From: a virus
Virus record (IMG/VR): IMGVR_UViG_3300042897_000994
Span: 96,938-160,937 of that record
DNA length: 64,000 bases
Direction: 5' to 3' (one strand)
Shown: positions 3,193 through 56,950 of the stretch, one piece after another
How the letters are laid out: each line of letters starts with the position of its first letter
How positions within the stretch are numbered: position 1 is the first letter of the stretch
Notes under the pieces: model-generated
Database searches by the model: none
Told to the model about the DNA's origin: nothing
What the model saw: only the letters and a program-made list of their open reading frames with translations
Translations under genes and position numbers: made by a program

Positions 3193-3219
3193 AAACAATT
3201 GTAAAAAAACTGATATAAC
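3193..3219 (+). promoter_or_regulatory. Phage promoter AAAC-N17-TATAAC heading the DNA-modification operon
   Basis: Same motif and spacing at eight other intergenic sites; ATG 4 nt downstream. Confidence 0.7.
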
Positions 3220-3223
3220 AAAT

Positions 3224-3793
3224 ATGCAAAAATATATTATCTTTGAAGGTCTAGATCGTTGTGGTAAAGACACTCAAGTTGGATTAGTACAAAAGTCTTT
3301 TTCGGATGAGACTTTTCATGTCTTCCATTATAGCAAAATCCCACTAGAAACTCCAGAACAAAACAGAGAATATAGTGAAAGAATGTATAGAGATATGTTC
3401 AATGTGATGATAGAGAATAAAGGTGAAAATAGAAATTTTATCTTCAATCGATCTCATCTCGGAGAATCTGTATATGCTCCTCTATATAGAAATTATTTAG
3501 GTGATTATGTTTTTAAGATTGAAGAAGAATATATCGAAGATCTAAAATCTAATCTTTATCTTGTAGTTTTGGTAAATGAACCTTCTATCTTAATCAGTAG
3601 AGAAGATGGAGATTCTTTAAGCAAAGGCGAAGAAGATATTGCTAAAGAAAAACAAATGTTTGAAAGAGCTTATTTTGAAAGCAAAATTCAAAATAAAATC
3701 TTGATCGACTGTGGAGTAGATAGCCCAACAGAAATTGCACAAATTATTAAAGACTTTATTTTAGATTCAGAAAATGAAAATATACCAGGGTAA
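3224..3793 (+). CDS. Thymidylate-kinase-like dNMP kinase
   Basis: IIFEGLDRCGKDTQ P-loop; FNRSHLGESVY. Confidence 0.8.
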   Translation: MQKYIIFEGLDRCGKDTQVGLVQKSFSDETFHVFHYSKIPLETPEQNREYSERMYRDMFNVMIENKGENRNFIFNRSHLGESVYAPLYRNYLGDYVFKIEEEYIEDLKSNLYLVVLVNEPSILISREDGDSLSKGEEDIAKEKQMFERAYFESKIQNKILIDCGVDSPTEIAQIIKDFILDSENENIPG

Positions 3794-4646
3794 TTCTTTC
3801 GCATCTGTATACAGAGATCTTCTGAACGATCTTTTAAATTCTCCTGAATATACATGTTCGCCTAGGGGAATGGAAATAAGAGAAATTACAGACTGTGCTC
3901 TAGTAATTGAAAATCCTGTCTTTGCAATGTATGAAAATGAGAGAAGATCTACTCAAGAAAAATATATTGCTGCAGAGTTTTTATGGTACTTTGCTGGTAG
4001 AAATGATTTAAGTTTTATCGAAAGATTCGCAAAGTTCTGGCAACATGTTGCAAATGAAGATGGAACTTTAAATTCTGCTTATGGAAATTTAATTTTCACA
4101 AAAAAGAATGAGCATAACATTTCACAGTGGGAATGGGCTTATAATTCATTAGTCGAAGATAAAGATACTCGTCAGGCAATTATGCATTTTAATATGCCTG
4201 AACACCAAAGACGTGGAAATAAAGATTTTGTTTGTACTCTAACTGGAATTTTTCAGATCAGAGAAAATAAATTGAATTTTACTGTGAACATGCGAAGTAA
4301 TGATGCCATCTTAGGAACTCCTACAGATATTCCTTTCTTCTGTGTTTTGCAGATCCAAATGTTAGAACTTTTAAAGTCTACATATCCAGATTTAGAACTC
4401 GGTACATATACACATTTTGCGCATTCTCTTCATATTTATGAAAGACATTTTCAACTGGTTGAAGAAATGTTAAAAGATGACAATTTTATTGCAAAAGATT
4501 TACCAAAAATCGATCAGACCCTGATATATAGATCAGGGAAACCCAACGAAAAAGTATTGGAAATGATTGATAAAATTGAAAAAGGCGAATCTGATGTAGA
4601 AGCAACAGGTGAAATTTTTAAATGGATTTATCAGAACATTTTCTGA
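3774..4646 (+). CDS. dCMP hydroxymethylase-type thymidylate synthase homolog (T4 gp42-like)
   Basis: SPRG, NSAYG, DTRQA, DFVCT catalytic Cys, MRSNDAILGTPTD with Asp at the pyrimidine-specificity position (Asn in ThyA), SLHIYERH. Confidence 0.8.
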   Translation: MKIYQGNSFASVYRDLLNDLLNSPEYTCSPRGMEIREITDCALVIENPVFAMYENERRSTQEKYIAAEFLWYFAGRNDLSFIERFAKFWQHVANEDGTLNSAYGNLIFTKKNEHNISQWEWAYNSLVEDKDTRQAIMHFNMPEHQRRGNKDFVCTLTGIFQIRENKLNFTVNMRSNDAILGTPTDIPFFCVLQIQMLELLKSTYPDLELGTYTHFAHSLHIYERHFQLVEEMLKDDNFIAKDLPKIDQTLIYRSGKPNEKVLEMIDKIEKGESDVEATGEIFKWIYQNIF

Positions 4647-4673
4647 TATCAATAAAAAAGATTATAATTTAAT

Positions 4674-5828
4674 ATGAACGTTACGAAATTTGAAAAGCCA
4701 GACACTTCCGTGAAATCGGTATATGTGTACTATTTTGGCAAGTATCCGAAGAAAACAAAACCAGCTAAAGATGTAACTTTACCTATCAGGCTTTGGCCAG
4801 AAGCTAAATTTTATATTAGATGTAATACTAAAGGAGGAATCGGAAAGAATAATCTGGAATATTTCTCTAATCTTTACAACGGAACTCAATTTGAGTTAGT
4901 AGAAGAAACTCTCGATCAAGTAGTAGATGCAGAAATGCTCTTTATCCATCATGAAAATTATAATGCATTTGGTGGAGTAGTTCGAGAATGCTGTATTCAT
5001 TTTGCTCAAATTCTAGGGAAATGGACGAAAAAGGCAACAGTTTTCTACAATGATGAATTATTCTCTGGTTTCTATGATATTAGGGATTGGTTAGAATCAA
5101 GATCAACAAATGAAAACTTCTTGAAAAATAATCCTCAAATTTTAGAAAGAGTTCCAAGAAGCGAAAATTGGGAAAATGTTACTCTGCTCATGAATGAAAA
5201 TAAAATCACAGACTGGGCTGATGTACATGTAAAAGACACTCTAACCGATAGAATTGAAGTTTCTTATCTATCAGATATTATTTTATATGATCTTCCTACC
5301 TCGGGAATGAAATATAAAAATAGTTATGAAAAGAAGGGAGTTTATGTTCCTCTGTTTACAGCAGAAAGAATTTCAGTTTGTAACAAACTTTTCAATGGAA
5401 ATGTAGAGATTACTTTTGCTGGATCTCGTTCAGATGAATTAAAAGAAAATATTGCAGGCGATGGAAAATACATTCAGAATTTTGAATTACCTGCATTCTT
5501 GAAAAAATTCGATTGGACTATTTATATCGGAAAGGGAAAGCAGTCTTCATATCTAGGAGCTACTTTTTACGAACCTCTATTAAAAGGTCTTCCTGTTTTT
5601 GTATGGACTGAAACCGACAAACAAAAGAAAGTTTTTGGTGATATCGATTGTTATTTCTCAACTGAAGATCAATTACAAAAGCTTGTTGAAAAGTGGGATA
5701 TGAAAGAACTTTACAAAACTCAAGTAGTACATATCTTCGGAAATGAACCTGAAGAAACTGGAGAATTTGAAAGTGTACAAGCTACAGAAATTCCAAAAGA
5801 AAAGCCTAAAGTAATTGCACTATTCTAA
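4674..5828 (+). CDS. Putative DNA glycosyltransferase, T4 beta-glucosyltransferase-like (GT-B)
   Basis: NYNAFGG...KWTKKATVFYND and IYIG...FYE...TETD...DCYF resemble remembered BGT motifs; directly follows the hydroxymethylase. Confidence 0.6.
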   Translation: MNVTKFEKPDTSVKSVYVYYFGKYPKKTKPAKDVTLPIRLWPEAKFYIRCNTKGGIGKNNLEYFSNLYNGTQFELVEETLDQVVDAEMLFIHHENYNAFGGVVRECCIHFAQILGKWTKKATVFYNDELFSGFYDIRDWLESRSTNENFLKNNPQILERVPRSENWENVTLLMNENKITDWADVHVKDTLTDRIEVSYLSDIILYDLPTSGMKYKNSYEKKGVYVPLFTAERISVCNKLFNGNVEITFAGSRSDELKENIAGDGKYIQNFELPAFLKKFDWTIYIGKGKQSSYLGATFYEPLLKGLPVFVWTETDKQKKVFGDIDCYFSTEDQLQKLVEKWDMKELYKTQVVHIFGNEPEETGEFESVQATEIPKEKPKVIALF

Positions 5829-6940
5829 TGATTGGAATAATTAGAACTCGACCATCTTTTGCAAGAGTAGAATATGAACCCTATCATTTTTTAAAATGGC
5901 TTGAGCTTTTTCCTCAAAATAGATTTTTGTGGTTGAGTAAAAATCCAGATAAAGTTAAAAAAAGATTCGGAGAAGAAAATTTTCCAGCAATAGAATCTTT
6001 TGATCTTGATGAATATTTTACAATTGAAAGTATCTCTGAACGTGAAAAGTATTTGGATGATTTAATTAAGAGTAAAAATCTAACTCAGATAATTACTATT
6101 CATAATGATATAAAGCAAAACTTTAAAAATGGAGCTGAAGAAAAGGGAACTTCCTTTTTTAACGGTATAGTAGAATCTGATAGTCTACCTACTTTTGTAT
6201 CAGTGAAAAATTTCTTTGAAGTTAATCACATTCCTTATTATCTTTCAAAGAAAATTCCAGTCGTTCATGTTTATGTAGATCCCCAAGAAGCATCTTGGAA
6301 TAGAATGACAGGATGCATTGAAGAAAAATATTTCTTCTATGAGAACTCAAGAATAGATGCAAAGTATCTACCTTTTGTAGAATGGAGTTTTTCAAAGCAG
6401 ATTAAAAAATATTCAAAGAAAAAGAAATTTGCATTTGGATTTACAGTAGTTACTGAAGACCGGGAACCTCTTTATTATCAATTAGCAGATATTAAAAATG
6501 TCAATTTTCTGGTTAAATTTCCGAAGATAGGAATTGATACCACGGTAAAAAGAGCCGATTATGCAGAAATGCTTAAAGAGAGTGAATTTACTCTTGTGAT
6601 TCCTTCGTATGAAGATACTGATTTTAGTAGTATTCGATTTTGGGATGCTATTACAAAAGCTTGCATTCCCTTTATTTTAGATACATGTAAATGGGAACAG
6701 GCTTTTGAGCAACATCCAGAAATAACAAAAATCATAAGTGAAGATCTTTTGGTGAATACTGATACCGTAAAAGAAAAGATTGAAAATACTGATTATGAAT
6801 CCTTGCTAAATAAAATCTGGAATACTCAAGACTGGAAAAATATTCAAGATCTAGAATGGTATCAAGATCAGATTAAGGGAATTTCATTTGCAGATTCTGA
6901 TAAACCTAAACCACCTTCCAAAAATATAGCTTTATTTTAA
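5828..6940 (+). CDS. Putative glycosyltransferase (GT-B), second DNA-modifying candidate
   Basis: FAFGFT...SEFTLVIPSY...SIRFWDAITKACIPFILD nucleotide-sugar-binding pattern. Confidence 0.6.
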   Translation: MIGIIRTRPSFARVEYEPYHFLKWLELFPQNRFLWLSKNPDKVKKRFGEENFPAIESFDLDEYFTIESISEREKYLDDLIKSKNLTQIITIHNDIKQNFKNGAEEKGTSFFNGIVESDSLPTFVSVKNFFEVNHIPYYLSKKIPVVHVYVDPQEASWNRMTGCIEEKYFFYENSRIDAKYLPFVEWSFSKQIKKYSKKKKFAFGFTVVTEDREPLYYQLADIKNVNFLVKFPKIGIDTTVKRADYAEMLKESEFTLVIPSYEDTDFSSIRFWDAITKACIPFILDTCKWEQAFEQHPEITKIISEDLLVNTDTVKEKIENTDYESLLNKIWNTQDWKNIQDLEWYQDQIKGISFADSDKPKPPSKNIALF

Positions 6941-7359
6941 TGGAATTACTCAACACCCACCCAATTAAAAAATCAGATTTAGGCTTTCATGGCAACCTTT
7001 TCGGAGGGAAATTGCTCGCCTGGATCGATGCAGCTGCTGCTGGGTATTCCATGCAATTATGTGACACCCCTAGAATGGTTACTGTATCAATTGATAAATG
7101 TATTTTTGAAAAGCCAGCAAGAGAAAGTCAGCTTTTAAAAATTTACGGAGAGCCAAGTGAATTAGGCAACACTTCAGTCACGATGTACCTAGAGGCAAGA
7201 GCTCATAATGTTTACACTGGCAGACAGACTCTTGTCTTAAAAACTCATATCAAATTTGTACATATTGATGAAGAAGGAAATCCAATTCCAATTGCAGAAA
7301 AAGGCAGAACTCGGGTACAAAAAATGATCGATTCAAAAACAAATATAGAAGAAAAATGA
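6940..7359 (+). CDS. Hotdog-fold acyl-CoA thioesterase (YciA-like)
   Basis: DLGFHGNLFGGKLLAWID, VTVSID, GNTS, FVHIDEEGNP. Confidence 0.85.
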   Translation: MELLNTHPIKKSDLGFHGNLFGGKLLAWIDAAAAGYSMQLCDTPRMVTVSIDKCIFEKPARESQLLKIYGEPSELGNTSVTMYLEARAHNVYTGRQTLVLKTHIKFVHIDEEGNPIPIAEKGRTRVQKMIDSKTNIEEK

Positions 7360-8375
7360 AAATATTAGTAGTAGGCGCAGGATTAAGCGGAGCAGTAGTT
7401 TCAAGACATTTAGCAGAAACTGGATGTAAAGTTACAGTTATCGATAAAAGAGATCACATTGCAGGAAACGCATTTGATTATACGAATGAACATGGAATAA
7501 GAGTTCATAAATATGGACCACATCTCTTTCATACTCGAAATGAAAAGATCTTTAAATATCTAAGTAGATTTACAGAATGGGTTCCTTACTTTCATAAAGT
7601 AAAAGCTCAGTTGGAAGATGGTAGATATGTCACACTCCCAGTGAATAAAGAAACAAAAGAGATTGTTGGTGAAGAAAACATTTTGGATATTTTCTTTAAA
7701 CCTTACACAAAGAAAATGTGGGGAAAGGAAATTGAAGAACTTGATCCGGGTATTGTAAACCGAGTGAAACAATTTACTCGAGATGATATGAATGATCTTT
7801 ATTTTCCGGACGATGAGTTTCAATGTATGCCAAAAGATGGTTATACTAAGATGGTAGAAAATATGTTTGAACATGAAAATATTCAAATCAATCTTTCAAC
7901 TGGATTTCATAAGAGTATGGAAGCTAATTTTGATTATGTTTTCAACAGTATGCCGATTGATGAATATTATGATTTTTGCTATGGTGAACTTCCCTATCGA
8001 TCAATCAAGTTTCATACTGTAGATCTTCCTGCACCAAAAATGTTACCTGCAGTTACTGTGAATTTTACTCATACTGGTAAATTTACTCGAATGACAGAGT
8101 GGAAAAATATTCCGGCACATGGAGAAAATCCCTCAATGACGACTTTGACTTATGAAGAGCCTTGCGATTATGCAGATAATGATAATGAAAGATATTATCC
8201 AGTCAAAGATGTTGAAGGTAAAAACAGAGAGCTCTTTAGTAAATATCAAGCAATAGAAAATCCAAAGACAATTTTTATGGGAAGATTAGGTCTTTATGTT
8301 TATATTGATATGCATCAATGTATCAGCTCTACTCTTACTATTGTGGAAAAATTCATTAAAGAGAAAAATGTATAA
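7356..8375 (+). CDS. glf: UDP-galactopyranose mutase
   Basis: VGAGLSG FAD motif, HIAGNAFD, HKYGPHLFHT, YTKKMWG, LPYRS, RYYP, GRLGLYVYIDM. Confidence 0.93.
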   Translation: MKILVVGAGLSGAVVSRHLAETGCKVTVIDKRDHIAGNAFDYTNEHGIRVHKYGPHLFHTRNEKIFKYLSRFTEWVPYFHKVKAQLEDGRYVTLPVNKETKEIVGEENILDIFFKPYTKKMWGKEIEELDPGIVNRVKQFTRDDMNDLYFPDDEFQCMPKDGYTKMVENMFEHENIQINLSTGFHKSMEANFDYVFNSMPIDEYYDFCYGELPYRSIKFHTVDLPAPKMLPAVTVNFTHTGKFTRMTEWKNIPAHGENPSMTTLTYEEPCDYADNDNERYYPVKDVEGKNRELFSKYQAIENPKTIFMGRLGLYVYIDMHQCISSTLTIVEKFIKEKNV

Positions 8376-9123
8376 AGATTTGTCAAGATTGCTATATGGC
8401 ACTTCTGATCCATATTCCGAATGGAAAAAAATTAATTTTCCCATTGAAAGAGACTATCCAATGACAAATATCTATTCTTCTTTAATACGAGAATCAATTG
8501 AAGAAACTAATACTAATTTTTGGTTAGAAATTGGCAGCATGTTTGGAGGTTCTGCGATTAAAACGGCTAAAGTTGCAAATAGTCTTAAGAAAGACATATC
8601 AATTATATGTATAGACCCTTTTTGCGGAGATGTTTCTATGTGGGAACACAATATTTTTTTAAAAAATCAAAGAGAACAAGGATTCATTGCAAAAAATTCT
8701 ATATATCTTGATCTAGATGGTTGCAGACCAACTTTAATGGATAAATTCCTCGGAAATGTAATTTCTGAAGGTTTCGAAAAAACTATCTTACCACTCCCTA
8801 CTACGAGTATGGTAGGAATGCGATTACTTGAAAGATTTAGAGAAGATAAAAAAATTGATAGAGGTCCGGGTGTAATCTATCTTGATTCTGCTCACGAATG
8901 GTATGAAACTTATATAGAATTAGTTACTGCATGGAGAATACTAGCTCCGGGTGGAATTTTAATAGGAGACGATTATGATTGGCCTGCAGTAAATCATGAT
9001 GTCAATAAATTTGCAAGAGACTATAAAGTTAAAATTTTAGAGAAAGAAAAAGCACATTGGATGATTAAAAAACCTCTAACTGTAGGATATTTAGCATCTC
9101 CTTTTTTTATGGGTGGGTATTAG
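8368..9123 (+). CDS. Class I SAM-dependent methyltransferase (Methyltransf_24-like); start probably ATG 8368
   Basis: LEIGSMFGGSA, CIDPF, IYLDSAH, LAPGGILIGDDY. Confidence 0.8.
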   Translation: MYKDLSRLLYGTSDPYSEWKKINFPIERDYPMTNIYSSLIRESIEETNTNFWLEIGSMFGGSAIKTAKVANSLKKDISIICIDPFCGDVSMWEHNIFLKNQREQGFIAKNSIYLDLDGCRPTLMDKFLGNVISEGFEKTILPLPTTSMVGMRLLERFREDKKIDRGPGVIYLDSAHEWYETYIELVTAWRILAPGGILIGDDYDWPAVNHDVNKFARDYKVKILEKEKAHWMIKKPLTVGYLASPFFMGGY

Positions 9124-9131
9124 ACACTCCG

Positions 9132-9161
9132 AGGAGATATATAAATAGAAAAATATCTCCT
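9132..9161 (+). promoter_or_regulatory. Late-type promoter (GATATATAAATA) inside an AGGAGATAT/ATATCTCCT hairpin
   Basis: Contains TATAAATA (T4 late consensus) at 9140-9147; 9-bp inverted repeat ending just before ATG 9164. Confidence 0.65.
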
Positions 9162-9163
9162 TG

Positions 9164-10651
9164 ATGCCACAAATTAAAAATCTAGACTCTTTCTTATCAG
9201 AAGGAGCTTCAGAACATAAGACAATATTAATTCTTACTGCAAGACCTAAGTCTTCTGATACCTCAGAAAGATTTGTCGAAGAGGCAAAGAAGAGAGGATT
9301 CAAAGCATATGTTGTAGATGTAAATTCAACTAAACTTGTTAAGATTGATGATAACAAGTTTAAAATAGAAAATACAGAAACAGGCAAAGGCCCAACGGTT
9401 AATAGATCAGAAACAGTAGTTCTCAGTAGAAGAGGAGTTCTCTCTAATACATTTACAAAAAATTTAGCGTATAGTTTAGAAAAAGCTAAATTTTTCTGCG
9501 TGAATAACATTCAATCTATGGAAACCTGCGAAAATAAGTATCTTGCAGGGGCACAGTTAGAAGCTGCGGGTATTCCAGTTCCTAAGACTGCGCTTCTACC
9601 AAATGATGAAAGCATAGATGAAGCTATCAAAAAGGTTGGAAGCAAATTTCCAGTTGTTGTAAAACTTCTTTCTGGCACTCAAGGTGTTGGAGTTTCGATA
9701 GTAGATTCTTATGCCTCTCTAAAATCAGTGTATCAGACTTTAAAGAAACTGGACAAGGGAGCAGAAATCCTGATTCAGGAAATGATTCCTTCTGATTATG
9801 ATATCAGAATACACGTTTTAAATAGAAGTTTTGATCCAGAAGATGATTCACCAGAGTCTTCTCAAATTATAGGAGCAATGAGGAGAAATAGAGTAAAGAA
9901 AGACTTTAGAACTAATTTTTCTCTTGGTGCAACAACACAAAAAATTAAACTAACTCCAGAGATCGAAGAAATTGCCAAAAAAGCAGCTAAAATCGTAGGA
10001 TGTGTTTGGTGTGGTGTAGATATTATCATCGACAAAAAGACAGGAAAGCCTTATGTTCTTGAAGTAAACTCTTCACCTGGAACGAAAGGTATCGAAAAAA
10101 CAACTGGAATTTCTGTGACTGGAAAAGTTCTTGATTTTCTTCAAGACCAAGGAAATTGGATGATGGACAGATTTGAAACAGGTTTTAGAGAAATTATCGA
10201 TATTCATGGAGTAGGAAAATTTGTAGCTAAATTCGATACCGGAAACGGTTCTAAGAGTAGTTCGATGCATGTCGATTCTTACGAAATAGAAGGAGATACT
10301 TTAATTTGGAAATTGAAAGGTAAAACTTATAAGAATCAGATCATAGGATATTCAAAAGCTGAAGTTGGAAAGCATACATTCAAAAGACCTATTATGCTTA
10401 TCGATATCAGTGTAGGTGGTAAAGTTCTTAGAGATGTTGAAGTAAGTCCAGTCGATAGATCAGGTAAAAGCACTCCTTTTCTTGCAAATAGAAAATTTAT
10501 GGAAAGAGCTGGTATCATGGTAAATCCTGATAGAGAATTCTATATTACTAACATTTCTTCAGTAGATAAAAACTTTAATGCAGTCGATGCTAAAGGAGAC
10601 AAACATGCTGGTATATCTGTAGACAATGATGTGGAGGACGAAGATGAATAA
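9164..10651 (+). CDS. RimK-family ATP-grasp ligase fused to a C-terminal RimB/retropepsin-like protease
   Basis: NK...IPVPKT, PVVVK..GTQGVGV, IQE, DIR, FRTNFSLG, GVDII, LEVNSSPG; C-terminal AKFDTGN...RP...DRS...FLANR. Confidence 0.85.
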   Translation: MPQIKNLDSFLSEGASEHKTILILTARPKSSDTSERFVEEAKKRGFKAYVVDVNSTKLVKIDDNKFKIENTETGKGPTVNRSETVVLSRRGVLSNTFTKNLAYSLEKAKFFCVNNIQSMETCENKYLAGAQLEAAGIPVPKTALLPNDESIDEAIKKVGSKFPVVVKLLSGTQGVGVSIVDSYASLKSVYQTLKKLDKGAEILIQEMIPSDYDIRIHVLNRSFDPEDDSPESSQIIGAMRRNRVKKDFRTNFSLGATTQKIKLTPEIEEIAKKAAKIVGCVWCGVDIIIDKKTGKPYVLEVNSSPGTKGIEKTTGISVTGKVLDFLQDQGNWMMDRFETGFREIIDIHGVGKFVAKFDTGNGSKSSSMHVDSYEIEGDTLIWKLKGKTYKNQIIGYSKAEVGKHTFKRPIMLIDISVGGKVLRDVEVSPVDRSGKSTPFLANRKFMERAGIMVNPDREFYITNISSVDKNFNAVDAKGDKHAGISVDNDVEDEDE

Positions 10652-11615
10652 GATTAAGCTGTTCGAAGAATTTATTCGAGAAGAAAAAAGTCCTAGAATT
10701 CTAGTCTTGAATTTTATGGTTGATAGTGTTTCTGCTGAAGGAACAGAAAAGAAATATGCAGACGGTTACAGAAGAGCAAATAATATTTTGGCTAGTAAGC
10801 TGAAAGAAAAGGGATTTACACCAGTTAACGCAGAGTATTCTGATCTCGTTTTTTCGAACTCGGATCTATTCGTAAACGAAGAGTCTCTATCTTCATTCGA
10901 CTTTGTATTTTTAGGCTTGATGGCCAAAAAAATGGAGTTAGCTAATATCGTAACCGATTATTTAAAAGATAAAAATATTCCTTATTTTTCCTATGGAACT
11001 CCTAGAGACAGGGGAAACAAGCTTGAAGATATGTGGAATCTTTCAAGAGAAGGTCTCCCTTATATTCCAACTTTCGTTTCTGCTTCATTTGAAGAATCAT
11101 TAAACTATATGAAAAATAACAAATGGGATTTTCCAGTAGTTGTTAAAGATATGGATAGTGCAGGCGGAGCAGGAGTTAGTAAAGCCGATGATGAAAAAGA
11201 ACTAAAAAAGCTTTTCGGCATTTCTGATGAAAAACACCAAGGAAACTTTGAAAGCTTTAAAATGATCCAAAAGTTTATTCCAAACGATGGAGATTATAGA
11301 GTTCTTATTTTTGATGGGAAGATTATAGCTATCGCAAAGCGTTGGACTGAAGACAAAAAGGAGTTCAGAAATAATATGTCTTTAGGCGGAAAGGGAAAGA
11401 TGGAAGACCTTCCCCAAAAAGAAAAAGATCTTGCACTAGCTGCAGCTCAAACCACCAGAAAACAGATGGCTGGTGTAGATTTAATACAGTCGAAAGATGA
11501 TAAAAAATGGTACATAATGGAAGTGAACAGCTCTCCACAGTATCACTATTTTTCTGAAATTCAGGACTTAGATTTTCCTCAATTACTTGCGGATTATATA
11601 GAAGACAAACTATGA
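10644..11615 (+). CDS. Second RimK-family ATP-grasp ligase; start probably ATG 10644
   Basis: FPVVVK..SAGGAGV, IQKFIP..GDYRV, FRNNMSLGG, AGVDLI, MEVNSSP. Confidence 0.85.
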   Translation: MNKIKLFEEFIREEKSPRILVLNFMVDSVSAEGTEKKYADGYRRANNILASKLKEKGFTPVNAEYSDLVFSNSDLFVNEESLSSFDFVFLGLMAKKMELANIVTDYLKDKNIPYFSYGTPRDRGNKLEDMWNLSREGLPYIPTFVSASFEESLNYMKNNKWDFPVVVKDMDSAGGAGVSKADDEKELKKLFGISDEKHQGNFESFKMIQKFIPNDGDYRVLIFDGKIIAIAKRWTEDKKEFRNNMSLGGKGKMEDLPQKEKDLALAAAQTTRKQMAGVDLIQSKDDKKWYIMEVNSSPQYHYFSEIQDLDFPQLLADYIEDKL

Positions 11616-11827: not shown

Positions 11828-12358
11828 ATGTCGCAAACATACGTGACCTCGGATCATTTTATTGGAAGAACGAATATCCTAAAGATTAACAATAGGTCAT
11901 ATTCTTCTATAGAAGAAATGAACCAAGATTTTGTTAGACGTTGGAACTCTAAAGTTAAAAGCGAAGATACAGTTTATCATTTAGGAAATTTTATATGGGA
12001 TCCTCTTATAGGATCTGAGTATTTACAGTTACTAAATGGAAAGATAATCTTAATTCCAACTCAAAACGATAAAGCTTCAGTTGAACTATCTAGTATAGCT
12101 AAAAATCATCTTACATTAGCTAAAGATAAAATCGTAGAATTGCCTAAATATGGAATCGTAATGTCTCACTATCCACAAGAAGATTGGAATGGAAAGGATT
12201 CAGGGACTATACACCTACATGGCGGAAAATCAGAAATTAAAACAGATCTTACTCTTTCCAGAAGAGTAAATTGTTCTGTAGAACTTTGGGACTATTATCC
12301 GGTAGAAATAAACGCAATATTAGACTTTGTTAAAGAATTTGAAGAAAATAGAAAATGA
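11828..12358 (+). CDS. Calcineurin-like metallophosphoesterase (several motifs degenerate)
   Basis: TSDHF, YHLGNF, SHYP, HLHG; canonical GD and GNHD altered. Confidence 0.7.
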   Translation: MSQTYVTSDHFIGRTNILKINNRSYSSIEEMNQDFVRRWNSKVKSEDTVYHLGNFIWDPLIGSEYLQLLNGKIILIPTQNDKASVELSSIAKNHLTLAKDKIVELPKYGIVMSHYPQEDWNGKDSGTIHLHGGKSEIKTDLTLSRRVNCSVELWDYYPVEINAILDFVKEFEENRK

Positions 12359-13095
12359 ACGAAACCTACCGGCAACTGGCAATACATTTTAAGGAAACAA
12401 AAGACGAAAAGACATTCAACAAGCTCTATGCTCGTATCAAACCCGGTTTGACAAACTACATCTATAATATCGTTAAAGATAGAGAAGCTGCCAATGATAT
12501 CGTATCAGATACTCTAACTAAATTATACACCTTAATAGACACTTATAATCCCCAATATGAAGTTACAACTTGGCTCTATCGAATAGCTAAAAATGACGCA
12601 ATTCATTTCATTTATTATCGTAACTCTTTTACTTCTTTGAACGCTTTTGCAGATAAAGGATATGAAGCTATTGATAGTGATGATCTAAAAAGATTTGGGG
12701 GAAAATCTTTGAGTATAGACGAGTCTTATCAACAAACAAATGTAGAAAAAGAGCATCTAGAAAAAGAAGAAAATCTACAGAAAAAATATAATATTTGCGT
12801 AGATGCAATAAACTCTCTGAAGCCAAAATATCGCCAGATAATGATGGATCGTTTCTTTGGAAAAATGGCGTATCAAGATATTGAAGCAAAGATAAACAAT
12901 CCAATCTTTGAAAAAATCAAAGAGATAGAAGAAGATTCCAATTTAACTGAGGATGAGAGAAAATATGCTCTGAAGAAACTAAAATCTTCTCTTATAAATC
13001 TTCAAACTGTTAAAAATAGAATACATAGAGGGAGGAAGATTATCCAAGAAATTCTAGGCAATCATCCTATCTTCTGTGTGCGCGAAGATATATAA
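12355..13095 (+). CDS. ECF-type sigma-70 family factor
   Basis: Region 2 (AANDIVSDT...YNP...TTWLYRIAKN); region 4 (L.PKYR...TVKNRIHRGRK). Confidence 0.8.
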   Translation: MNETYRQLAIHFKETKDEKTFNKLYARIKPGLTNYIYNIVKDREAANDIVSDTLTKLYTLIDTYNPQYEVTTWLYRIAKNDAIHFIYYRNSFTSLNAFADKGYEAIDSDDLKRFGGKSLSIDESYQQTNVEKEHLEKEENLQKKYNICVDAINSLKPKYRQIMMDRFFGKMAYQDIEAKINNPIFEKIKEIEEDSNLTEDERKYALKKLKSSLINLQTVKNRIHRGRKIIQEILGNHPIFCVREDI

Positions 13096-13109
13096 AAAAA
13101 ATAAAAATT

Positions 13110-13580
13110 ATGCTCAAGAAGTTTCAAGAATACATTAAAGAAGGTGATTCAGGTGAAGCTCCTCACTATATGTTCTTTGGAAATCTTAAAACGATTCAGA
13201 AAGACGTAAATATGCTTTTATCTCTCCCAGAAGATCAAGTTGCCGCAATATTAGCGAACGGTCATGATTGGGCATCTGATCATATTGCCACATCTAAAGA
13301 TGACATTGAAGAAGTTACTAATTTTTTTTCCGGCGAATTTTCACCAATGATAGGTGAAGGTTTCATAGAAGGTGCTTTAACCGCCGCATTCGAAGACTAC
13401 ACTAAATCTATAAGCAAATTTACAGATCTTCAAAAGACTTTTATCACAATGTCTAAAGACAGAGTAACTGAAAGACAAAAAGTTAAAAATCAGTTGATAG
13501 AAGCTCTAAGAGATTTAAGAGCTAAAGAATCTTATTATAAAGAAGTTCTGCAAGAAGACGCAGACTTCTTTGAGATGTAA
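13110..13580 (+). CDS. Hypothetical, probable capsid-internal protein
   Basis: N-terminal KKFQEYIKE; GATATATA at 13087. Confidence 0.55.
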   Translation: MLKKFQEYIKEGDSGEAPHYMFFGNLKTIQKDVNMLLSLPEDQVAAILANGHDWASDHIATSKDDIEEVTNFFSGEFSPMIGEGFIEGALTAAFEDYTKSISKFTDLQKTFITMSKDRVTERQKVKNQLIEALRDLRAKESYYKEVLQEDADFFEM

Positions 13581-43537: not shown

Positions 43538-44836
43538 ATGAATAACTTAGATAAACAATATCAAGCACTCCTTCAAGACATTCTTGATAGCGGAATTAAA
43601 AAATCAGATCGTACCGGAACAGGTACGATTTCTGTTTTCGGTAGACAGATAAGACATAAGATGTCTGAAGGCTTCCCGTTATTAACAACCAAAAAGATGG
43701 CTTGGAAGACGATGGTGACTGAGTTACTCTGGTTTCTTCGTGGAGATACAAACATCAAATTTCTTGTTGATAACGATTGTCATATTTGGGATGGAGATTG
43801 TTATAAAGCGTATATTAAAAGATATAATAAAGGTGAATATGTTGGTAAAACCAAATTATTAGAAAATTCTAAGAAAAATAGAACATTGACTGAACCATTC
43901 ACACAAGAAGAATTCATCAACAAAATTAAAACAGATGATGAATTTGCTAAGAAGTGGGGTGAGTTAGGTCCGGTATATGGTAAGCAGTGGAGAAAATGGA
44001 GAGGAGAAGATGGATATGATTGGAATACAAAAGTTAGTGAAACCCAAATAGACCAAATCCAAAACCTAATCCAAGACCTTAAAACAAATCCAGACTCAAG
44101 GAGACTAATGGTTTCTGCTTGGAATGTAGGTGAATTAGACCAAATGGTTCTTCCACCTTGTCATTATGGATTTCAAGTTTATACAAGAGAGTTGAGTTTG
44201 GAAGAACGTAGAGCCTTGGTTTTAAAAGATACACAATATACTCTGCCTCCATCAACAAATTGGACAGAAGATGAAATAAAAGAAGGTAAACGACAATTAG
44301 AGGAAGCAAATATCCCAACCAGAGCAATCTCTTTAATGTGGAATCAACGTTCAGTAGATACATTCTTAGGATTACCATTCAACATTGCTTCTTATGGTTT
44401 ATTACTTGAAATTATTGCCAAAGTAGTAAATATGGTTCCTGATGAATTGATTGGTAATCTCGGAGACGTACACCTATATTCAAACCATGTTGAGCAGGCT
44501 AAAGAGCAAATTCGTAGAGAGATGACATGGGAAGAACAAGTTCAATGGGTTATAAAGAACACCGACGTAGAGATGGAGAATCTTTATATAGTAGAAGAAA
44601 TTGCTAAAGATAGTACGCCTAAATATACAAGAGAACCTTTTCCATTACCAACACTGAACATTAATACTGAGTTCTGGCCTTATGAAGGCGGAGAATGCGG
44701 AGAAGGCCCATTGGATGCTATTGCAGTATTTAATGGATTTCGGGATAGTAACTTTTGTAAATGTTTATTAGAAGCCGATATTCAACTCGCAAACTACCAA
44801 TCCCACCCGGCAATCAAAGCACCTTTATCAAATTAA
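43538..44836 (+). CDS. thyA: Thymidylate synthase with insertions
   Basis: DRTGTGT, FPLLTTK, ELLWF, LPPCH, QRSVDTFLGLPFNIASY (Asn, dUMP-specific), HLYSNH. Confidence 0.95.
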   Translation: MNNLDKQYQALLQDILDSGIKKSDRTGTGTISVFGRQIRHKMSEGFPLLTTKKMAWKTMVTELLWFLRGDTNIKFLVDNDCHIWDGDCYKAYIKRYNKGEYVGKTKLLENSKKNRTLTEPFTQEEFINKIKTDDEFAKKWGELGPVYGKQWRKWRGEDGYDWNTKVSETQIDQIQNLIQDLKTNPDSRRLMVSAWNVGELDQMVLPPCHYGFQVYTRELSLEERRALVLKDTQYTLPPSTNWTEDEIKEGKRQLEEANIPTRAISLMWNQRSVDTFLGLPFNIASYGLLLEIIAKVVNMVPDELIGNLGDVHLYSNHVEQAKEQIRREMTWEEQVQWVIKNTDVEMENLYIVEEIAKDSTPKYTREPFPLPTLNINTEFWPYEGGECGEGPLDAIAVFNGFRDSNFCKCLLEADIQLANYQSHPAIKAPLSN

Positions 44837-50093: not shown

Positions 50094-53000
50094 AAATAAG
50101 AGCACATACATGTTATATTGGCAAAACTGGATTTGCCGCACATGCTAGAGGATTTTTTAGAAATCTTTCATACCACACAGATTTACGAGTTCGAAATTAC
50201 ACGTGGGATGATAAACCCGAAAGTCACCTCGTCGATAGAGATTATCAAATTCTAGAAACTATCAGTTTAAATACTTCAGGTATACACGAATTGGAAGAAG
50301 GGGGTGGAGGAAGTTTTGAAGATTTTCCAATGCAGCACGTAGAAGCCTGGTCTCATCTAAGCTTTAAAGATTTTAGAGGAGAGAGCGAATTTGTACCAGA
50401 TATTGATATTGTGTTGATGGACACTAATCACTATTACTATTATGAAAAGCCCGATCCCAGAGTAAAGATCAGAATTGCATATCTTGTATGGGAGACAACT
50501 CGCTTAGAAGACAATTTCTACAGAGCAATTCAGAATAATTTTACTCACATCTTTGTTCCTACAAAATGGCACAGAGAAATGTTGCTAGAACAGGGATATC
50601 CCCTACACCGAATATTTGTAGTCCCAGAAGGAATTGATGAGGAGTTTCATAATAGTACAGTTACTGAAATTCTACCAGATTATTCTGATAATAGATTTAA
50701 GTTTCTTTTCTTCGGTAGATGGGATTATAGAAAAGCGGTACCTGAAATTCTCAAGTCTTTTCTAGAAGAATTCAAACCCGAAGAAGAGGTAGACTTTATT
50801 TTAAGTGCTGATAACTTGTTCTCTATTGATGGAATGAATTCTACCGAAGAGAGATTAGAATTTCATGGCTTACAGGACGATAGGATAAAGATAAAACACT
50901 TTCCTTCTAGATCTGATTATGCAAATTTTGTAAAGACAGGACATGTTCTTGTAACATGTGCTCGAAGTGAAGGTTGGAATATTCCATTAGCAGAAGCAAT
51001 TGCAGCTGGAACACCAGTCATCTATTCAAATTACGGAGCTCAGCTAGAATTTGCAGAAGGTATCGGAACTCCAGTTCAGTACACAGAAATGCGTAAAGCT
51101 GAACTAGGTACTGGTAAGTCTTGGTTTCAAGGATACTTACCAGGTGACTATTGTGAGCCAGACTATGATGATCTAAAGAGAGCATTAAGAGAAACTTACG
51201 AGAATTGGAATGAAAAGAAAGCTGAAGCGATGGAACAAGTACTTCGTATCAGAGAAGAATTTTCATGGTCAAGAGTTGCAAAAACCGGCTTCGAATACTT
51301 GAAGCTCTTAATGAATCAAGAAGACGCAACTGGAAAGTCCGGGACTAAAGATCTTGTAGTTATTCTATCGCACCCCGATAACGAGGAGAGAGAAGCATAT
51401 CTAAAAATATGTAATCATGAGATCAAACGTCAAGGATATAAAACTCTAGTAATGAGTCATATCCCTACCAATGTAGATTCAAATTATACCCTGGTAGTTA
51501 AAGAGAATCCTGTCTTTACTCTTGAAGAGTGGGGTAATAGGAAACCCTTTCCTCGGCTTTTGCTTAAAGGAGAGGCCTTCGAATTAACTCATACACAAAG
51601 AAATGACTATGGATATGCAGTTTATGATCTTCTAAAAAGAGCACTAAGATTTGCGTTTGTTGAAGGATTCGAGAGAATATATTTTGTGAATTATGATTAT
51701 CTTCTTTTTGATGAAAAGACTCTAAAGACTCTAGAAGAACAAGTCGAAGAGAGTAGTGACTTTTTTGTGGGTACTCATTGGAAAGACAATCTCATAAACA
51801 CCGGTCTTTTTTCGGTAGATGTTCAAAAATTCATGAATCTTCTATTTAAGATTAACACACCAGAAGAATATGTAAATTATTCTCCAGAAAGCTCTTCTAT
51901 AGAAAATGTTATTACAAAACTGGTAAATTCTTCACCTTATACTCGATCAATTTTGCAAACATCTGAAGTACAAGGTCATAGTAAATTTGATCTTCTTTCT
52001 TCTTTTGAAGTTACTTCTTTGTCAGGTTCAATAGTTCTTCCCTGTATCAATCAATCTGGAGATCTTTTCCTTTATCTAAGCGGAAAGCCTGGATCTGAAT
52101 CGAGTTTTAGAATTTTACAAGGTGACAAATATTTAGACTTGGATTTTAGCACTCAGAAATTTGTTAAGTTAGAAAGAGAAGCAAGCATACCCGAAGAAAT
52201 CAGAGTAGAGGATCTGAAGACAAAGAATCGGTTGATAGTTTCTCTAGATAATCCCGGAAGACTAAAAACATCTGAAGAATTTGAATCAGAATCCCTAATA
52301 GAAGATTCAGAGATTATTTCATTTCATTTTGTTAAAGGCCCTTGGTTAGAACTAACTACTCGAGTAAAGAAAGGAAAATATCGAGTAGAATTTATCGATA
52401 AAAAAGAGAACAAAGCTGTTTATACACATAATATCGAAAATAACTGTTGGGTAGGATGTAGCAGAGAATACTATGTAGATTGGTTGGTAAAAGTCACTGA
52501 CTTAAGTAAAGACAAAGTAATATTCGAACATCATTTCGATCTAAATGAAAAGAGAGTATTTATTTCTTTAGAATCTGAATCTTTAGGAGATACTATCGCT
52601 TGGTTTGCACCAATAGAAGAATTCCAGAAGAAGCATAATTGCAAATTAATAGTCAGTACTTTTAAAAATGATCTTTTCAGATCTGAATATCCTAGCATCC
52701 AGTTTGTAGAAAGAGGAGTTGGAGTACCTAATATTTATGCAGGATATAAAATCGGATGGTTCTATGAAAGAGATTCTGATACTTATAATACTTCAATGCA
52801 CCCGTGCCATTTTAGAGATATTCCTATGCAACAAGCTGCATCAGATATTTTAGGATTAGATTTAAAGACGTACAAACCAAGATTAGTCAAGCCCCAAACT
52901 GGAAGACCAATTGAAGGAAAATATATTTGCATTGGAATCCATGCAACCGCACAAGCTAAATATTGGAATCATCCACATGGATGGCAAACTGTAGTAGACT

Positions 53001-53425
53001 ATTTGAAATCTGAAGGATACGAAGTAGTCCTTATTTCCAAAGAAACTGGAACTTATATGGGCAATGCGGCGCCTGAAGGAATTATCGATAGATCTGGTAA
53101 TTTTCCTCTAAGCGATCGAATTAATTATCTGGCTCATGCAGATGCATTTATTGGAGTTGGATCAGGTTTAAGTTGGTTGGCCTGGGCATCAGGAACTAAA
53201 GTAGTAATGATCTCTGGATTCAGTAAACCACATACTGAATTTGAAGATGAAAATCTTCTCAGAATTTGGAATCCAAATGTCTGCAATGGATGTTTCAATA
53301 GATTTAGATTAGATGCAGGTGATTGGAATTGGTGTCCAGATCAGAAAGGAACTACGAGACAATTTGAATGTAGCAAATCTATTCAACCCGAAGATGTAAT
53401 CTATCAACTAAAAAACTTTTTATAA
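50084..53425 (+). CDS. Multidomain glycosyltransferase: GT4 + middle GT-like domain + Aah/TibC-type protein O-heptosyltransferase
   Basis: FFGRWDYRK, RSEGWNIPLAEA; SLGDTIAW, FIGVGSGLSWLAW, CNGCFN...WNWCP...FECSKSI. Confidence 0.85.
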   Translation: MEIKIRAHTCYIGKTGFAAHARGFFRNLSYHTDLRVRNYTWDDKPESHLVDRDYQILETISLNTSGIHELEEGGGGSFEDFPMQHVEAWSHLSFKDFRGESEFVPDIDIVLMDTNHYYYYEKPDPRVKIRIAYLVWETTRLEDNFYRAIQNNFTHIFVPTKWHREMLLEQGYPLHRIFVVPEGIDEEFHNSTVTEILPDYSDNRFKFLFFGRWDYRKAVPEILKSFLEEFKPEEEVDFILSADNLFSIDGMNSTEERLEFHGLQDDRIKIKHFPSRSDYANFVKTGHVLVTCARSEGWNIPLAEAIAAGTPVIYSNYGAQLEFAEGIGTPVQYTEMRKAELGTGKSWFQGYLPGDYCEPDYDDLKRALRETYENWNEKKAEAMEQVLRIREEFSWSRVAKTGFEYLKLLMNQEDATGKSGTKDLVVILSHPDNEEREAYLKICNHEIKRQGYKTLVMSHIPTNVDSNYTLVVKENPVFTLEEWGNRKPFPRLLLKGEAFELTHTQRNDYGYAVYDLLKRALRFAFVEGFERIYFVNYDYLLFDEKTLKTLEEQVEESSDFFVGTHWKDNLINTGLFSVDVQKFMNLLFKINTPEEYVNYSPESSSIENVITKLVNSSPYTRSILQTSEVQGHSKFDLLSSFEVTSLSGSIVLPCINQSGDLFLYLSGKPGSESSFRILQGDKYLDLDFSTQKFVKLEREASIPEEIRVEDLKTKNRLIVSLDNPGRLKTSEEFESESLIEDSEIISFHFVKGPWLELTTRVKKGKYRVEFIDKKENKAVYTHNIENNCWVGCSREYYVDWLVKVTDLSKDKVIFEHHFDLNEKRVFISLESESLGDTIAWFAPIEEFQKKHNCKLIVSTFKNDLFRSEYPSIQFVERGVGVPNIYAGYKIGWFYERDSDTYNTSMHPCHFRDIPMQQAASDILGLDLKTYKPRLVKPQTGRPIEGKYICIGIHATAQAKYWNHPHGWQTVVDYLKSEGYEVVLISKETGTYMGNAAPEGIIDRSGNFPLSDRINYLAHADAFIGVGSGLSWLAWASGTKVVMISGFSKPHTEFEDENLLRIWNPNVCNGCFNRFRLDAGDWNWCPDQKGTTRQFECSKSIQPEDVIYQLKNFL

Positions 53426-53428
53426 AAA

Positions 53429-54076
53429 ATGGCTAACGGAATTTACAAAATCACTGAAGATTTTGAACAAAAACTTGCTGAGTATACAGGAGCAAAATTC
53501 GCAATAACTGTAGATAATCAGTCTAATGCTCTTTTTCTTGCTCTTATGTACGAGGGAGTAAAAGGAATAGAAATTACAATCCCTTCCCGAACTTACCCAT
53601 CAGTTCCTTGTGAAATTATTCACGCAGGAGCAAAGGTTAACTTTACTCCCGTGAAAGGAAAAAAAATTAAAGGTGCATATCAGCTTGAACCTACTAATGT
53701 TTGGGATTCGGCTCTGGCTTTTACTGCTGATATGTACAAACCTGGAACTCATATGTGTATTTCTTTTACAGGTCCCTACAAACATTTTAAGTTGTCAAAG
53801 GGTGGAGCTATTCTAACTGATAACTACGATGCATATCTGTGGTTCAAGAGAGCACGTTATTCAGGTCGAAGGGAAACTTCTTATCATGATGATCACTTCG
53901 ATATGTTGGGTTGGAATTTCTATATGATGCCTGAACTAGCAGCTCGAGGTCTCCTCTTGATTAACCAATTCTACAACACAGATGGAACAAAGAAGCACAA
54001 TCCTGATCTAGAGCTTCCATATCCAGATCTCTCTAAATTTGAGATTTATACAAAAGCAAACAGAGAAGATGAGTAA
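53429..54076 (+). CDS. DegT/DnrJ-family PLP aminotransferase-like (short)
   Basis: FE..LAEYTGAKFA, WDSA, SF...K...GGAILT, GWNFYM. Confidence 0.8.
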   Translation: MANGIYKITEDFEQKLAEYTGAKFAITVDNQSNALFLALMYEGVKGIEITIPSRTYPSVPCEIIHAGAKVNFTPVKGKKIKGAYQLEPTNVWDSALAFTADMYKPGTHMCISFTGPYKHFKLSKGGAILTDNYDAYLWFKRARYSGRRETSYHDDHFDMLGWNFYMMPELAARGLLLINQFYNTDGTKKHNPDLELPYPDLSKFEIYTKANREDE

Positions 54077-54680
54077 GAGTCTGGCAATATATGGATTCGG
54101 TGGCCATGCTAGAGAGGTTTCTTTTCAGATGAAAGACATCATTGAGAAAGAAAATCTAGAATTACAGTTCTATGTAGATGATGAGTATGCGAATGATCTA
54201 GCTAAGCCGATTTCAGAATTCAATCCAGAAGAAATGATGATGATGGTAGCAGTCGCAGATCCTAAAGATAGAGAAATGATGGTTAAAAGGCTACCTGCCG
54301 AAACTGAATTTTTTACCTTTATTCATAATGCTGCTATTGTTTTTGATTTTGGAAATTTCAGTATCGGAGAAGGTTCTTTTATCGGAGCTTTTTCGATAAT
54401 TACCACAAATGTGCATCTTGGAAATCATGCAATCTTAAACAGAGGTAATCATATCGGTCACGATACTGTAGTAGGTGACTATTTAAGCATGATGCCCGGA
54501 GCAATTATATCAGGTAATGTAACAGCGGGAAACCGGTTATATATGGGATCAAATTCATCAATTAGAGAAAAATTAAAAGTTTGTGATGATGTGACTCTGG
54601 GTTTGAACTGTGGTTTAGTTAAAAATGTAATGGAGCCTGGAATTTATGTAGGGTTGCCAGCAAAAAAATTAAAAATATGA
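54069..54680 (+). CDS. NeuD/PglD-like sugar acetyltransferase; start probably ATG 54069
   Basis: YGFGGHAREV, hexapeptide repeats, IGHD, VGLPAK. Confidence 0.85.
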   Translation: MSKSLAIYGFGGHAREVSFQMKDIIEKENLELQFYVDDEYANDLAKPISEFNPEEMMMMVAVADPKDREMMVKRLPAETEFFTFIHNAAIVFDFGNFSIGEGSFIGAFSIITTNVHLGNHAILNRGNHIGHDTVVGDYLSMMPGAIISGNVTAGNRLYMGSNSSIREKLKVCDDVTLGLNCGLVKNVMEPGIYVGLPAKKLKI

Positions 54681-54713
54681 AAGAATTTAATTTTATCGAG
54701 TTCAAGAAAAATT

Positions 54714-55694
54714 ATGAAAAAGATCGCGCTTATAAGTACTTTTTGTGATACAGAAGAAAAGCAAAATGTTTTAAGGGAAACTATCATTAAAATCAAGAGT
54801 CTGGGAGTAGATGTAATGGCACTCGGACCAAATTTCATTCCTATTAAAAATGATATTATAGATTTATGTGACTTTTTCTTTTATACTAAAGAAAATCCTG
54901 TATTAAAATGGCCTGATAAAGCATTTACTCACTGGAGAAGAAGACCTTTAGAAGACGGTAGATCTATTATGTTTCATGAATGTTTACCAGATTATGGATG
55001 GTCTGCATTATATCAAACAAAAAAATTATCACAAATTGCGCTGACATTCGATTATGATATTTTCTATCATATGATCTATGATGTTGAAATTGATGAAATT
55101 ATCGAAAGTGAATTGATAGGTTCAGAAGTAAATTTAATACACCCTAGAAGAGATCCTAGAGATCCTACAAAACTTTGGGAAACTACTTTACACTTTATGA
55201 TTTTTGATAGAGAAATAATGGAAAGTATAGAGAAAGAAATAGATCTCAATTCATATCGAAATGATTATGGATTTGCAGAAAATGAAGCTTCAAAATGGAC
55301 TAAGAAATTTCCAATCAAAATTTCAAATCATTGTGTAAAAGATAGAATATATTACTATGAAAATTTCGATTTTTTTAATTATTCAATGTTCGATGATTTT
55401 AAAATGTTTTTATCAAAAAATGATAAAACTCAACATGAGCATGATACTTTAGGTTGGATTGATTTAACTGATAATTTAAGAATTTGTCTTTATGACTTTA
55501 ATCATGAAATTGAAATTGAAATTGAAATCAATGGAGAAAAATTTATAAAAAATATTAAAGAATGGGAAATTATTGAATTTCCTTACAGTTCTACAAATAT
55601 TAGGAGCATAATCTTTACTTATAACAATAAAGTGGTAGACTTTACTGATAGATACGAAAAAATCTCAATGAATCAAGTGTATTATAACAGATAA
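54714..55694 (+). CDS. Hypothetical putative glycosyltransferase (paralog family)
   Basis: ALISTFCDT...ENP...FYHMIYD. Confidence 0.55.
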   Translation: MKKIALISTFCDTEEKQNVLRETIIKIKSLGVDVMALGPNFIPIKNDIIDLCDFFFYTKENPVLKWPDKAFTHWRRRPLEDGRSIMFHECLPDYGWSALYQTKKLSQIALTFDYDIFYHMIYDVEIDEIIESELIGSEVNLIHPRRDPRDPTKLWETTLHFMIFDREIMESIEKEIDLNSYRNDYGFAENEASKWTKKFPIKISNHCVKDRIYYYENFDFFNYSMFDDFKMFLSKNDKTQHEHDTLGWIDLTDNLRICLYDFNHEIEIEIEINGEKFIKNIKEWEIIEFPYSSTNIRSIIFTYNNKVVDFTDRYEKISMNQVYYNR

Positions 55695-56856: not shown

Positions 56857-56950
56857 TGATAAATTACCTTATTATGATAATGAATATGATGAAAATGGGG
56901 AGTTTATTGGATGGTTAAGGAAAAAATATCCTAAAAATATACAACATTAA

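Follow-up and report, generated by a model that had tools for sequence, protein, structure and literature searches.

Glycosylated cytosines are a major means by which phages escape restriction enzymes and CRISPR nucleases, and they have also been a source of tools such as the T4 beta-glucosyltransferase (BGT), used in mapping 5-hydroxymethylcytosine (hmC). This kind of system is already known from the T-even phages, with their glucosyl-hmC, and from Rhizobium phage RL38J1 of the Pootjesviridae, where UDP-galactofuranose (UDP-Galf) was proposed as the phage-made donor for a glycosylated 5-hydroxycytosine pathway (Lee et al., NAR 2026, PMC13326640). Described here is a block of seven genes from a window of 64 kb, the last part of the 160,937 bp IMG/VR virus contig IMGVR_UViG_3300042897_000994 (CheckV completeness ~50%). 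The block brings together a thymidylate synthase (TS) homolog of the dCMP hydroxymethylase type, two glycosyltransferases (GT1 and GT2) and a UDP-galactopyranose mutase (UGM), Glf. It is very likely that the DNA of this phage contains glycosylated hmC, and the fuller statement that hmC replaces C and is galactofuranosylated, with galactofuranose (Galf) as the sugar, is given a probability of about 0.6. An initial annotation had proposed a hypermodification with hmC in place of C and a furanose upon it; that proposal is supported, and none of the checks on transferase fold, glf linkage and dCTPase refuted it.

Studies on related systems provide the means of telling these chemistries apart. The DNA of phages RB69 and DLP3 carries arabinofuranosyl-5-hydroxycytosine made via flavin-dependent TS homologs, and three positions in TS proteins (E. 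coli ThyA numbering) are diagnostic: N177D denotes dCMP specificity, the acidic L143D/E, which gives water access, denotes a product other than methyl, and D169N is specific to 5-hydroxy-dCMP synthases (PMC13326640). In the phage MT/TET-dependent clusters glycosyltransferases (GTs) decorate 5hmC with one to three sugars, and the tailoring varies (Pyle et al., bioRxiv 10.1101/2023.12.21.572611).

The predicted base and the transferases

The seven consecutive open reading frames (ORFs) occupy window positions 3224-9123 on the plus strand, with gaps of no more than 31 nt and overlaps of 1-20 nt. Their positions and families agree with the seven abutting or overlapping genes of the initial annotation (kinase, TS homolog, two GT-B proteins, thioesterase, Glf and methyltransferase). 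As first listed the ORFs were 3224-3793, 3774-4646, 4674-5828, 5828-6940, 6940-7359, 7356-8375 and 8296-9123, but for the last an ATG at 8368, overlapping the Glf stop, is the more likely start. Family names came from Pfam and PHROGs, which between them named five of the seven.

The TS homolog (3774-4646; P0001) matched Pfam PF00303 (Thymidylat_synt) at 1.2e-22, and its best PDB sequence matches were the MilA CMP hydroxymethylase (1.3e-24) and T4 gp42 (1.9e-21), with ThyA at only ~1e-9 to 1e-11. It was aligned (A3) with T4 gp42, RB69 gp48, RL38J1 gp216 and the phage's own ThyA. The catalytic Cys (ThyA C146) is present as Cys154 (KDFVCT, compared with SDFMCT in T4 gp42), the residue three positions before it, at ThyA L143, is Asp as in T4 gp42 and MilA, and Asp also replaces ThyA N177 (GTPTD, against GLPFN in ThyA and GFRND in T4). 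The motifs KDFVCT and MRSNDAILGTPTD picked out in the initial annotation are therefore real, and the proposed specificity Asp does align with the Asn of ThyA GLPFN. At ThyA D169 the window protein retains Asp (MRSND), as does T4 gp42, whereas RB69 gp48 and RL38J1 gp216 have MRSQN; the D169N change of 5-hydroxy-dCMP synthases is thus lacking. Because the signature is of the gp42 type (L143D, D169, N177D), 5hm-dCMP made from dCMP is the predicted product, and the retained Asp169 would explicitly exclude a 5-hydroxycytosine route, so that the hmC prediction survives the newest of the diagnostic positions. The same pattern was found in 9/9 TS homologs examined, eight of which adjoin a GT1-family gene, the ninth being that of the uncultured phage LR756500. 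A further homolog, within 3838-5582 of the locus from Agathobaculum phage AB434P2 (OP172633), is annotated as a 'deoxyuridylate hydroxymethyltransferase', yet it looks dCMP-specific because it has Asp at the N177 position (MRSCD...PYD).

The genes for nucleotide supply are of a T4-like kind. A gp56-like dCTPase, which the initial annotation had suggested seeking in the rest of the genome, is encoded at contig positions 50284-50763, 46 kb upstream (phmmer against T4 gp56 5.2e-23, 77 bits; weak dUTPase_2 match), and its presence fits full replacement of C. The kinase (3224-3793), a thymidylate-kinase-like P-loop nucleotide kinase and candidate 5hm-dCMP kinase, had an N-terminal P-loop match to PF02223 that fell below the cut-off (3.6e-5), a match to phrog_761 'thymidylate kinase' at 1.2e-11 and weak PDB matches to thymidylate kinases only. 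Such a kinase adjoins the TS homolog in six related loci and likewise in RB69, DLP3 and RL38J1, and the 161 kb contig yielded no kinase resembling T4 gp1. A separate canonical ThyA, as initially annotated, lies at 43538-44836 on the plus strand (PF00303 5.8e-88; A3), and with its dUMP-specific GLPFN motif it is expected from its sequence to cover dTMP supply. At 432 aa it is far longer than the usual ~264-320 aa, the alignment showing big insertions and an extended C-terminus.

GT1 (4674-5828; P0002), the probable hmC galactofuranosyltransferase, was compared by structure with solved proteins. As the initial annotation had supposed, T4 BGT was the closest, clearly above generic GT-B enzymes, and the BGT-like GT-B structure spans the whole chain. 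With hhalign the catalytic base of BGT, D100, fell on D127 of a FYNDE motif at a probability of only 70%; in the GT1-family alignment (A1) the neighbouring N126 is invariant and E128 nearly so. These observations support GT1 as a remote homolog of the inverting T4 beta-glucosyltransferase with its catalytic Asp apparently conserved. Relatives are metagenomic only (41 clusters at 90% identity); a profile search returned 52 representatives among 1.84 billion proteins, and tblastn with GT1 gave no match.

GT2 (5828-6940; P0003), the probable transferase of a second or tailoring sugar, is a GT-B protein with a GT47-like C-terminal domain and a weak, sub-threshold Pfam match to Exostosin_GT47 (1e-5). 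Its model is usable (predicted local distance difference test, pLDDT, 81) and its top structure matches were T4 BGT (16.9) and the phage HY126 DNA glycosyltransferase (15.2), with TarM close behind at 15.0. The initial annotation had likened it too to DNA glycosyltransferases: the GT-B fold and the two leading matches agree with this, but the DNA enzymes do not stand apart from the rest. Its relatives are also metagenomic only (17 clusters at 90% identity), none was found in IMG/VR by pattern scan, and a distant one lies directly after the TS homolog in phage AB434P2.

Linkage of Glf and variation around the core

Glf (7356-8375), the predicted supplier of UDP-Galf, is judged from its sequence to be a bona fide UGM. 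It matched PF03275 at 3.7e-51 (174 bits, cut-off 26.3), NAD_binding_8 (PF13450) at 5e-19 (68.8 bits) and solved UGMs in the PDB at 1.1e-70. The motifs YGPHxFHT, YTxKxWG, MPKxGYT, TRxTExK, YYPV and GRLGxYxYxDM align with the Deinococcus and Klebsiella UGMs and belong to the substrate and flavin sites.

Linkage was assessed at 12 loci with a GT1-family gene, 32-85% identical to the window GT1. Glf is in the cluster at 11 of them, ten being recognized by the GLF Pfam match and that of L003 by its size, its position and a C-terminus resembling the L004 Glf. A gp42-type TS homolog is present at ten, with a cut ORF in its place at an eleventh. The gene order in the window and L028 is kinase-TS-GT1-GT2-thioesterase-Glf, in L003, L004 and L029 kinase-TS-Glf-GT1, in L005 GT1-Glf-sulfotransferase-kinase-TS and in L025 TS-x-x-Glf-GT1. 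The association of glf with gp42-like genes and GT1, the former of which the initial annotation had proposed to check in related phages, therefore holds in relatives down to 32% identity and through shuffled gene orders. A gp42-type TS, a PF09198 T4-Gluco-transf protein (9e-22) and Glf are also contiguous in Lactobacillus phage ATCCB (MK504445).

Pairwise profile comparisons detected no homology between GT1 and the ATCCB BGT, between GT1 and GT2, between GT2 and either RL38J1 gp215 or T4 BGT, or between GT1 or GT2 and the Glf-adjoining protein of Aeromonas phage 25, so different GT families appear to pair with Glf in different phages. In the last-named phage (L030, 5001-7182) and in Erwinia phage FBB1 (L031, 5001-7126) Glf is paired with an uncharacterised protein of ~355 aa just after motA; this pair in T4-like Straboviridae is possibly another Galf-DNA cassette in cultured phages.

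It is also clear from comparison of the loci that a conserved core is accompanied by variable tailoring. The slot after the core holds GT2, a thioesterase, a methyltransferase, a sulfotransferase, a C5-methyltransferase-like protein, a 426-aa protein, or a kinase-like protein with a nucleotidyltransferase. The accessory thioesterase (6940-7359) is a 4HBT hotdog protein (PF03061, 3.5e-15; acyl-CoA hydrolases in the PDB, 4.9e-16), found among related loci only in the window and L028, a relative of 80% identity. The class I S-adenosylmethionine methyltransferase (8368-9123), possibly a sugar O-methyltransferase, belongs to PF13578 (Methyltransf_24, 6.3e-9) with weak RMNT_CmcI and O-methyltransferase matches; it is absent from L028, and another Methyltransf_24 gene in the L026 cluster shares only the Pfam family with it. 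At L004 the slot is occupied (12282-13478) by a gene resembling C5 cytosine DNA methylases (PF00145, 2.7e-18), in a cluster which also encodes the nucleotide-level hydroxymethylase. A distant lineage, represented by the Logan contigs L021-L025, has TS, a 145-aa ORF, one or two unnamed GT-sized ORFs by GT1, and Glf, together with a choline-kinase/RIO-like protein and a CTP_transf_like nucleotidyltransferase (L025 also an epimerase/dehydratase), which suggests that it makes a second nucleoside diphosphate sugar.

On its 5' side the block is abutted by nucleotide genes (GMP reductase-like and guanylate kinase), and the transcription unit may for this reason extend further upstream. The stretch 422-2806 encodes IMPDH/GMP-reductase family, KTSC and cREC_REC (cyclic-phosphate processing receiver) proteins and guanylate kinase, and is conserved in L028. 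A sigma-70 promoter scan was uninformative as to the single promoter seen in the initial annotation, since sites were rarer than in shuffled sequence, and a terminator scan was likewise uninformative. Downstream, the T4-type late-promoter word TATAAATA (9140-9147, plus strand) stands between the block and two RimK-like ATP-grasp genes, beyond which a sigma factor is encoded, and was taken as the block boundary; with six copies in the window against 9.6 expected by chance it is a weak marker alone. The tandem ATP-grasp genes (9161-11615) also lie downstream of the block in every close relative (L004, L005, L028 and L029), which made them candidate members of the pathway. They were set aside, being preceded by the late-promoter word and absent in L021-L026 and ATCCB. 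No DNA-level counterpart of the block was found in GenBank phages.

A C-terminal tail shared with replication proteins

Seven of the 179 genes on the whole contig end in LF, against 0.75 expected from composition. These are the C-terminal half of the family-B polymerase (PolB), the FEN/RNase H nuclease, the topoisomerase II large subunit, GT1 (..KVIALF), GT2 (..KNIALF) and two small ORFs in the replication-gene region, one of 188 aa after the gp41 helicase and one of 70 aa after the primase. The consensus of the tail is K-x-x-[IVT]-[AS]-L-F. It is retained in the closer homologs of GT1, GT2 and the topoisomerase, where the preceding linker is variable and of low pLDDT, and in L029, where a 426-aa protein stands in the place of GT2, that protein bears it too. 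None of the other five products of the block (kinase, TS homolog, Glf, thioesterase and methyltransferase) has it. As the tail is common to polymerase, FEN nuclease and topoisomerase, GT1 and GT2 are probably held at the replisome. We take it to resemble clamp-binding motifs (bacterial QL[SD]LF and the T4 gp43 C-terminus), and it is suggested to be a short docking motif with the sliding clamp as candidate partner.

The replication genes are T4-like (gp41, gp43, gp44, gp46, gp47, gp61 and UvsX). The closest UvsX proteins are those of the 462 kb uncultured phage LR756500 (53%) and the Lak megaphages of Prevotella (38%). One relative has a contig of 326 kb, and the source is itself an uncultured huge phage of ~320 kb with LR756500 and the Lak phages among its relatives. 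PolB is split (contig 50763-57368, ~40-46 kb before the window begins): its N-terminal gene, of 468 aa, covers the exonuclease and the start of the polymerase domain and is abutted by the dCTPase gene, and its C-terminal gene has 378 aa. Between the two are an ORF of 330 aa, the gene for the large subunit of ribonucleotide reductase and an unassigned ORF of 250 aa. On the minus strand at contig 75191-76054, just upstream of the gp44 clamp-loader gene, is a sialyltransferase-like gene (phrog_4603, 1.2e-34).

Proposed pathway and comparison with known systems

From the gene content, active-site signatures, folds, linkage across lineages and shared tail we infer a pathway, including the sugar and the partner of the tail. 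The gp56-like dCTPase would strip dCTP to dCMP, which the TS homolog would convert to 5-hydroxymethyl-dCMP; the thymidylate-kinase-like enzyme and host NDP kinase would raise this to the hm-dCTP level, and the phage polymerase would insert hmC for C. Glf would turn host UDP-galactopyranose into UDP-Galf, from which GT1 would place the sugar onto the hydroxymethyl of hmC in duplex DNA; the product, judged from that of BGT, would probably be beta-Galf-hmC. GT2 may add a second sugar and the methyltransferase may O-methylate, the tailoring differing between relatives. Held at the replisome by their tail, most likely on the sliding clamp, GT1 and GT2 would target newly made DNA. The most detailed version, in which beta-galactofuranosyl-hmC, extended or O-methylated in some relatives, is made by transferases that a clamp-binding-type tail tethers to the replisome, physically coupling glycosylation to replication, and in which the variable slot stems from an arms race with modification-dependent nucleases, is put forward tentatively and as a whole is rather doubtful.

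Several results weigh against galactofuranosylated hmC made in this way. GT1 has no Pfam family at E 0.01, PF09198 (CAZy GT63) included, and no sequence-level match in the PDB; besides the low probability of its hhalign match to BGT, it could use UDP-glucose as BGT does, because the donor that an enzyme prefers cannot be read from its structure. GT1 relatives that are more distant (E 1e-19 or weaker) lie in other gene contexts, which confines the linkage claim to the core GT1 family, and at locus L027 neither Glf nor a TS homolog lies within 8 kb of GT1. Glf is without ~35-40 residues of the helical domain (its residues 102-108 span 130-170 of the 3hdq chain); in L004 and L005 Glf is of full length. 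The thioesterase is without a place in the scheme. No sliding clamp was found with the Pfam gp45 N- and C-terminal and two DnaN families in the contig, which spans only about half of the genome, or in the complete 462 kb LR756500, none with PHROGs among five candidate ORFs, and none by single-sequence hhalign of all ORFs of 170-420 aa against T4 gp45; searching with the ORF of 234 aa that follows the FEN gene gave no informative result.

Other explanations of the block differ in the sugar, the base or the acceptor. The main alternative is that the DNA carries glucosyl- or another pyranosyl-hmC, the transferases using host UDP-sugars and Glf serving a surface or virion glycan or the depletion of UDP-galactopyranose. 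GT1's nearest structure is after all a glucosyltransferase, epimerases and dehydratases are encoded in separate glycan-type islands elsewhere in the genome, and Glf occurs in temperate Streptococcus phages, apparently without a TS homolog (no Streptococcus was among the named organisms). This is nevertheless unlikely given that Glf stays by GT1 and the TS homolog despite reshuffling, at 11/12 loci and again in the unrelated ATCCB, and that the sugar genes of L005 are GT1 and Glf only. Some UGMs accept UDP-arabinose, and Glf might act as a UDP-arabinopyranose mutase leading to arabinofuranosyl-hmC. The initial annotation had pointed to arabinosylated cytosines in RB69-like phages, and arabinofuranosyl cytosines are indeed present in RB69 and DLP3, but there the sugar sits on 5-hydroxycytosine and not on hmC (PMC13326640). 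The donor genes of RB69 and DLP3 (arabinose-5-P isomerase, phosphatase, kinase and nucleotidyltransferase) are all absent from the block, UDP-arabinopyranose is uncommon as a bacterial metabolite and Glf matches classical UGMs at 1e-70, all of which makes arabinofuranose improbable.

An equally improbable variant changes the base instead, with 5-hydroxycytosine as precursor, the base used by RB69, DLP3 and RL38J1, and an ether joining the sugar directly to C5. The set of TS homolog, kinase, GT and Glf does parallel RL38J1 gp216, gp214, gp215 and gp84, but D169N is absent (MRSND as against MRSQN), Gly173 is retained, and the TS homolog is far nearer T4 gp42 (1.9e-21) than 9iqu and 9iqc (~5e-7), PDB entries for a 'thymidylate synthase' of 234-238 aa that we take to be the HY126 enzyme. 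Lastly, GT1 and GT2 could act on protein, lipid or a small molecule, their adjacency to nucleotide genes being incidental. The GT-B fold is common to many non-DNA enzymes, and among the matches of GT2 the DNA enzymes are not set apart from TarM and others; even so, the specific BGT match and apparently conserved catalytic Asp of GT1, the linkage to gp42-type genes in several unrelated phage lineages and a replisome-type tail common to polymerase, FEN and topoisomerase make this very improbable.

The initial annotation knew of no described Galf-modified DNA base. No paper was found on a Galf-hmC base or on the GT1 family, so the statement holds for the base, but the use of UDP-Galf has been proposed for RL38J1 (PMC13326640). 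That phage resembles the present one in having a TS homolog, a thymidylate-kinase-like kinase, a GT and a phage Glf; it differs in that its TS is a D169N flavin-type 5-hydroxy-dCMP synthase, whereas the window TS keeps Asp169, and in that its Glf lies far from the TS/GT cluster. In the clusters of Pyle et al. hmC is made on DNA, by a C5-methyltransferase and a TET-like oxygenase, whereas here it is predicted at the nucleotide level; hexose, N-acetylhexosamine (HexNAc) and heptose were reported there, with no furanose supply gene mentioned.

With the T-even phages the likeness extends to the gp56 homolog, a gp42-type TS of identical active-site signature, T4-like replisome genes and a BGT-like gene right after the hydroxymethylase, as genes 42 and beta-gt are placed in T4. 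The differences are that the window has a phage Glf supply, that GT1 is remote from BGT and without PF09198, that the kinase is thymidylate-kinase-like and not gp1-like, and that a GT47-like GT, a methyltransferase, a thioesterase and the tail on both transferases are added. Genes 45-47 of ATCCB, a contiguous gp42-type TS (MRSND...D), BGT-family transferase and Glf, make that phage the nearest cultured carrier of this predicted chemistry; its isolation paper was found to mention neither these genes nor DNA modification. It is an unrelated 80 kb phage of a Gram-positive host, has a true PF09198 transferase and is without GT2, methyltransferase and thioesterase. The prediction is directly testable because the trio of gp42-type TS, BGT-like GT and Glf recurs from Lak-related huge phages to a cultured Lactobacillus phage.

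To these known systems the window adds a TS signature that is predicted explicitly to exclude 5-hydroxycytosine as the route, a homology of GT1 to BGT that is remote yet specific, the pattern of conserved core and variable tailoring, and the replisome-type tail. The tail on both transferases suggests how a post-replicative modification keeps pace with the fork; we know of no description of such coupling for the T4 glucosyltransferases. If the galactofuranosyl-hmC prediction is true, GT1 would define a new DNA glycosyltransferase family with a different donor, and furanose on hmC would be a new chemical class beside glucose, gentiobiose and arabinose, offering new substrates for type IV restriction studies.

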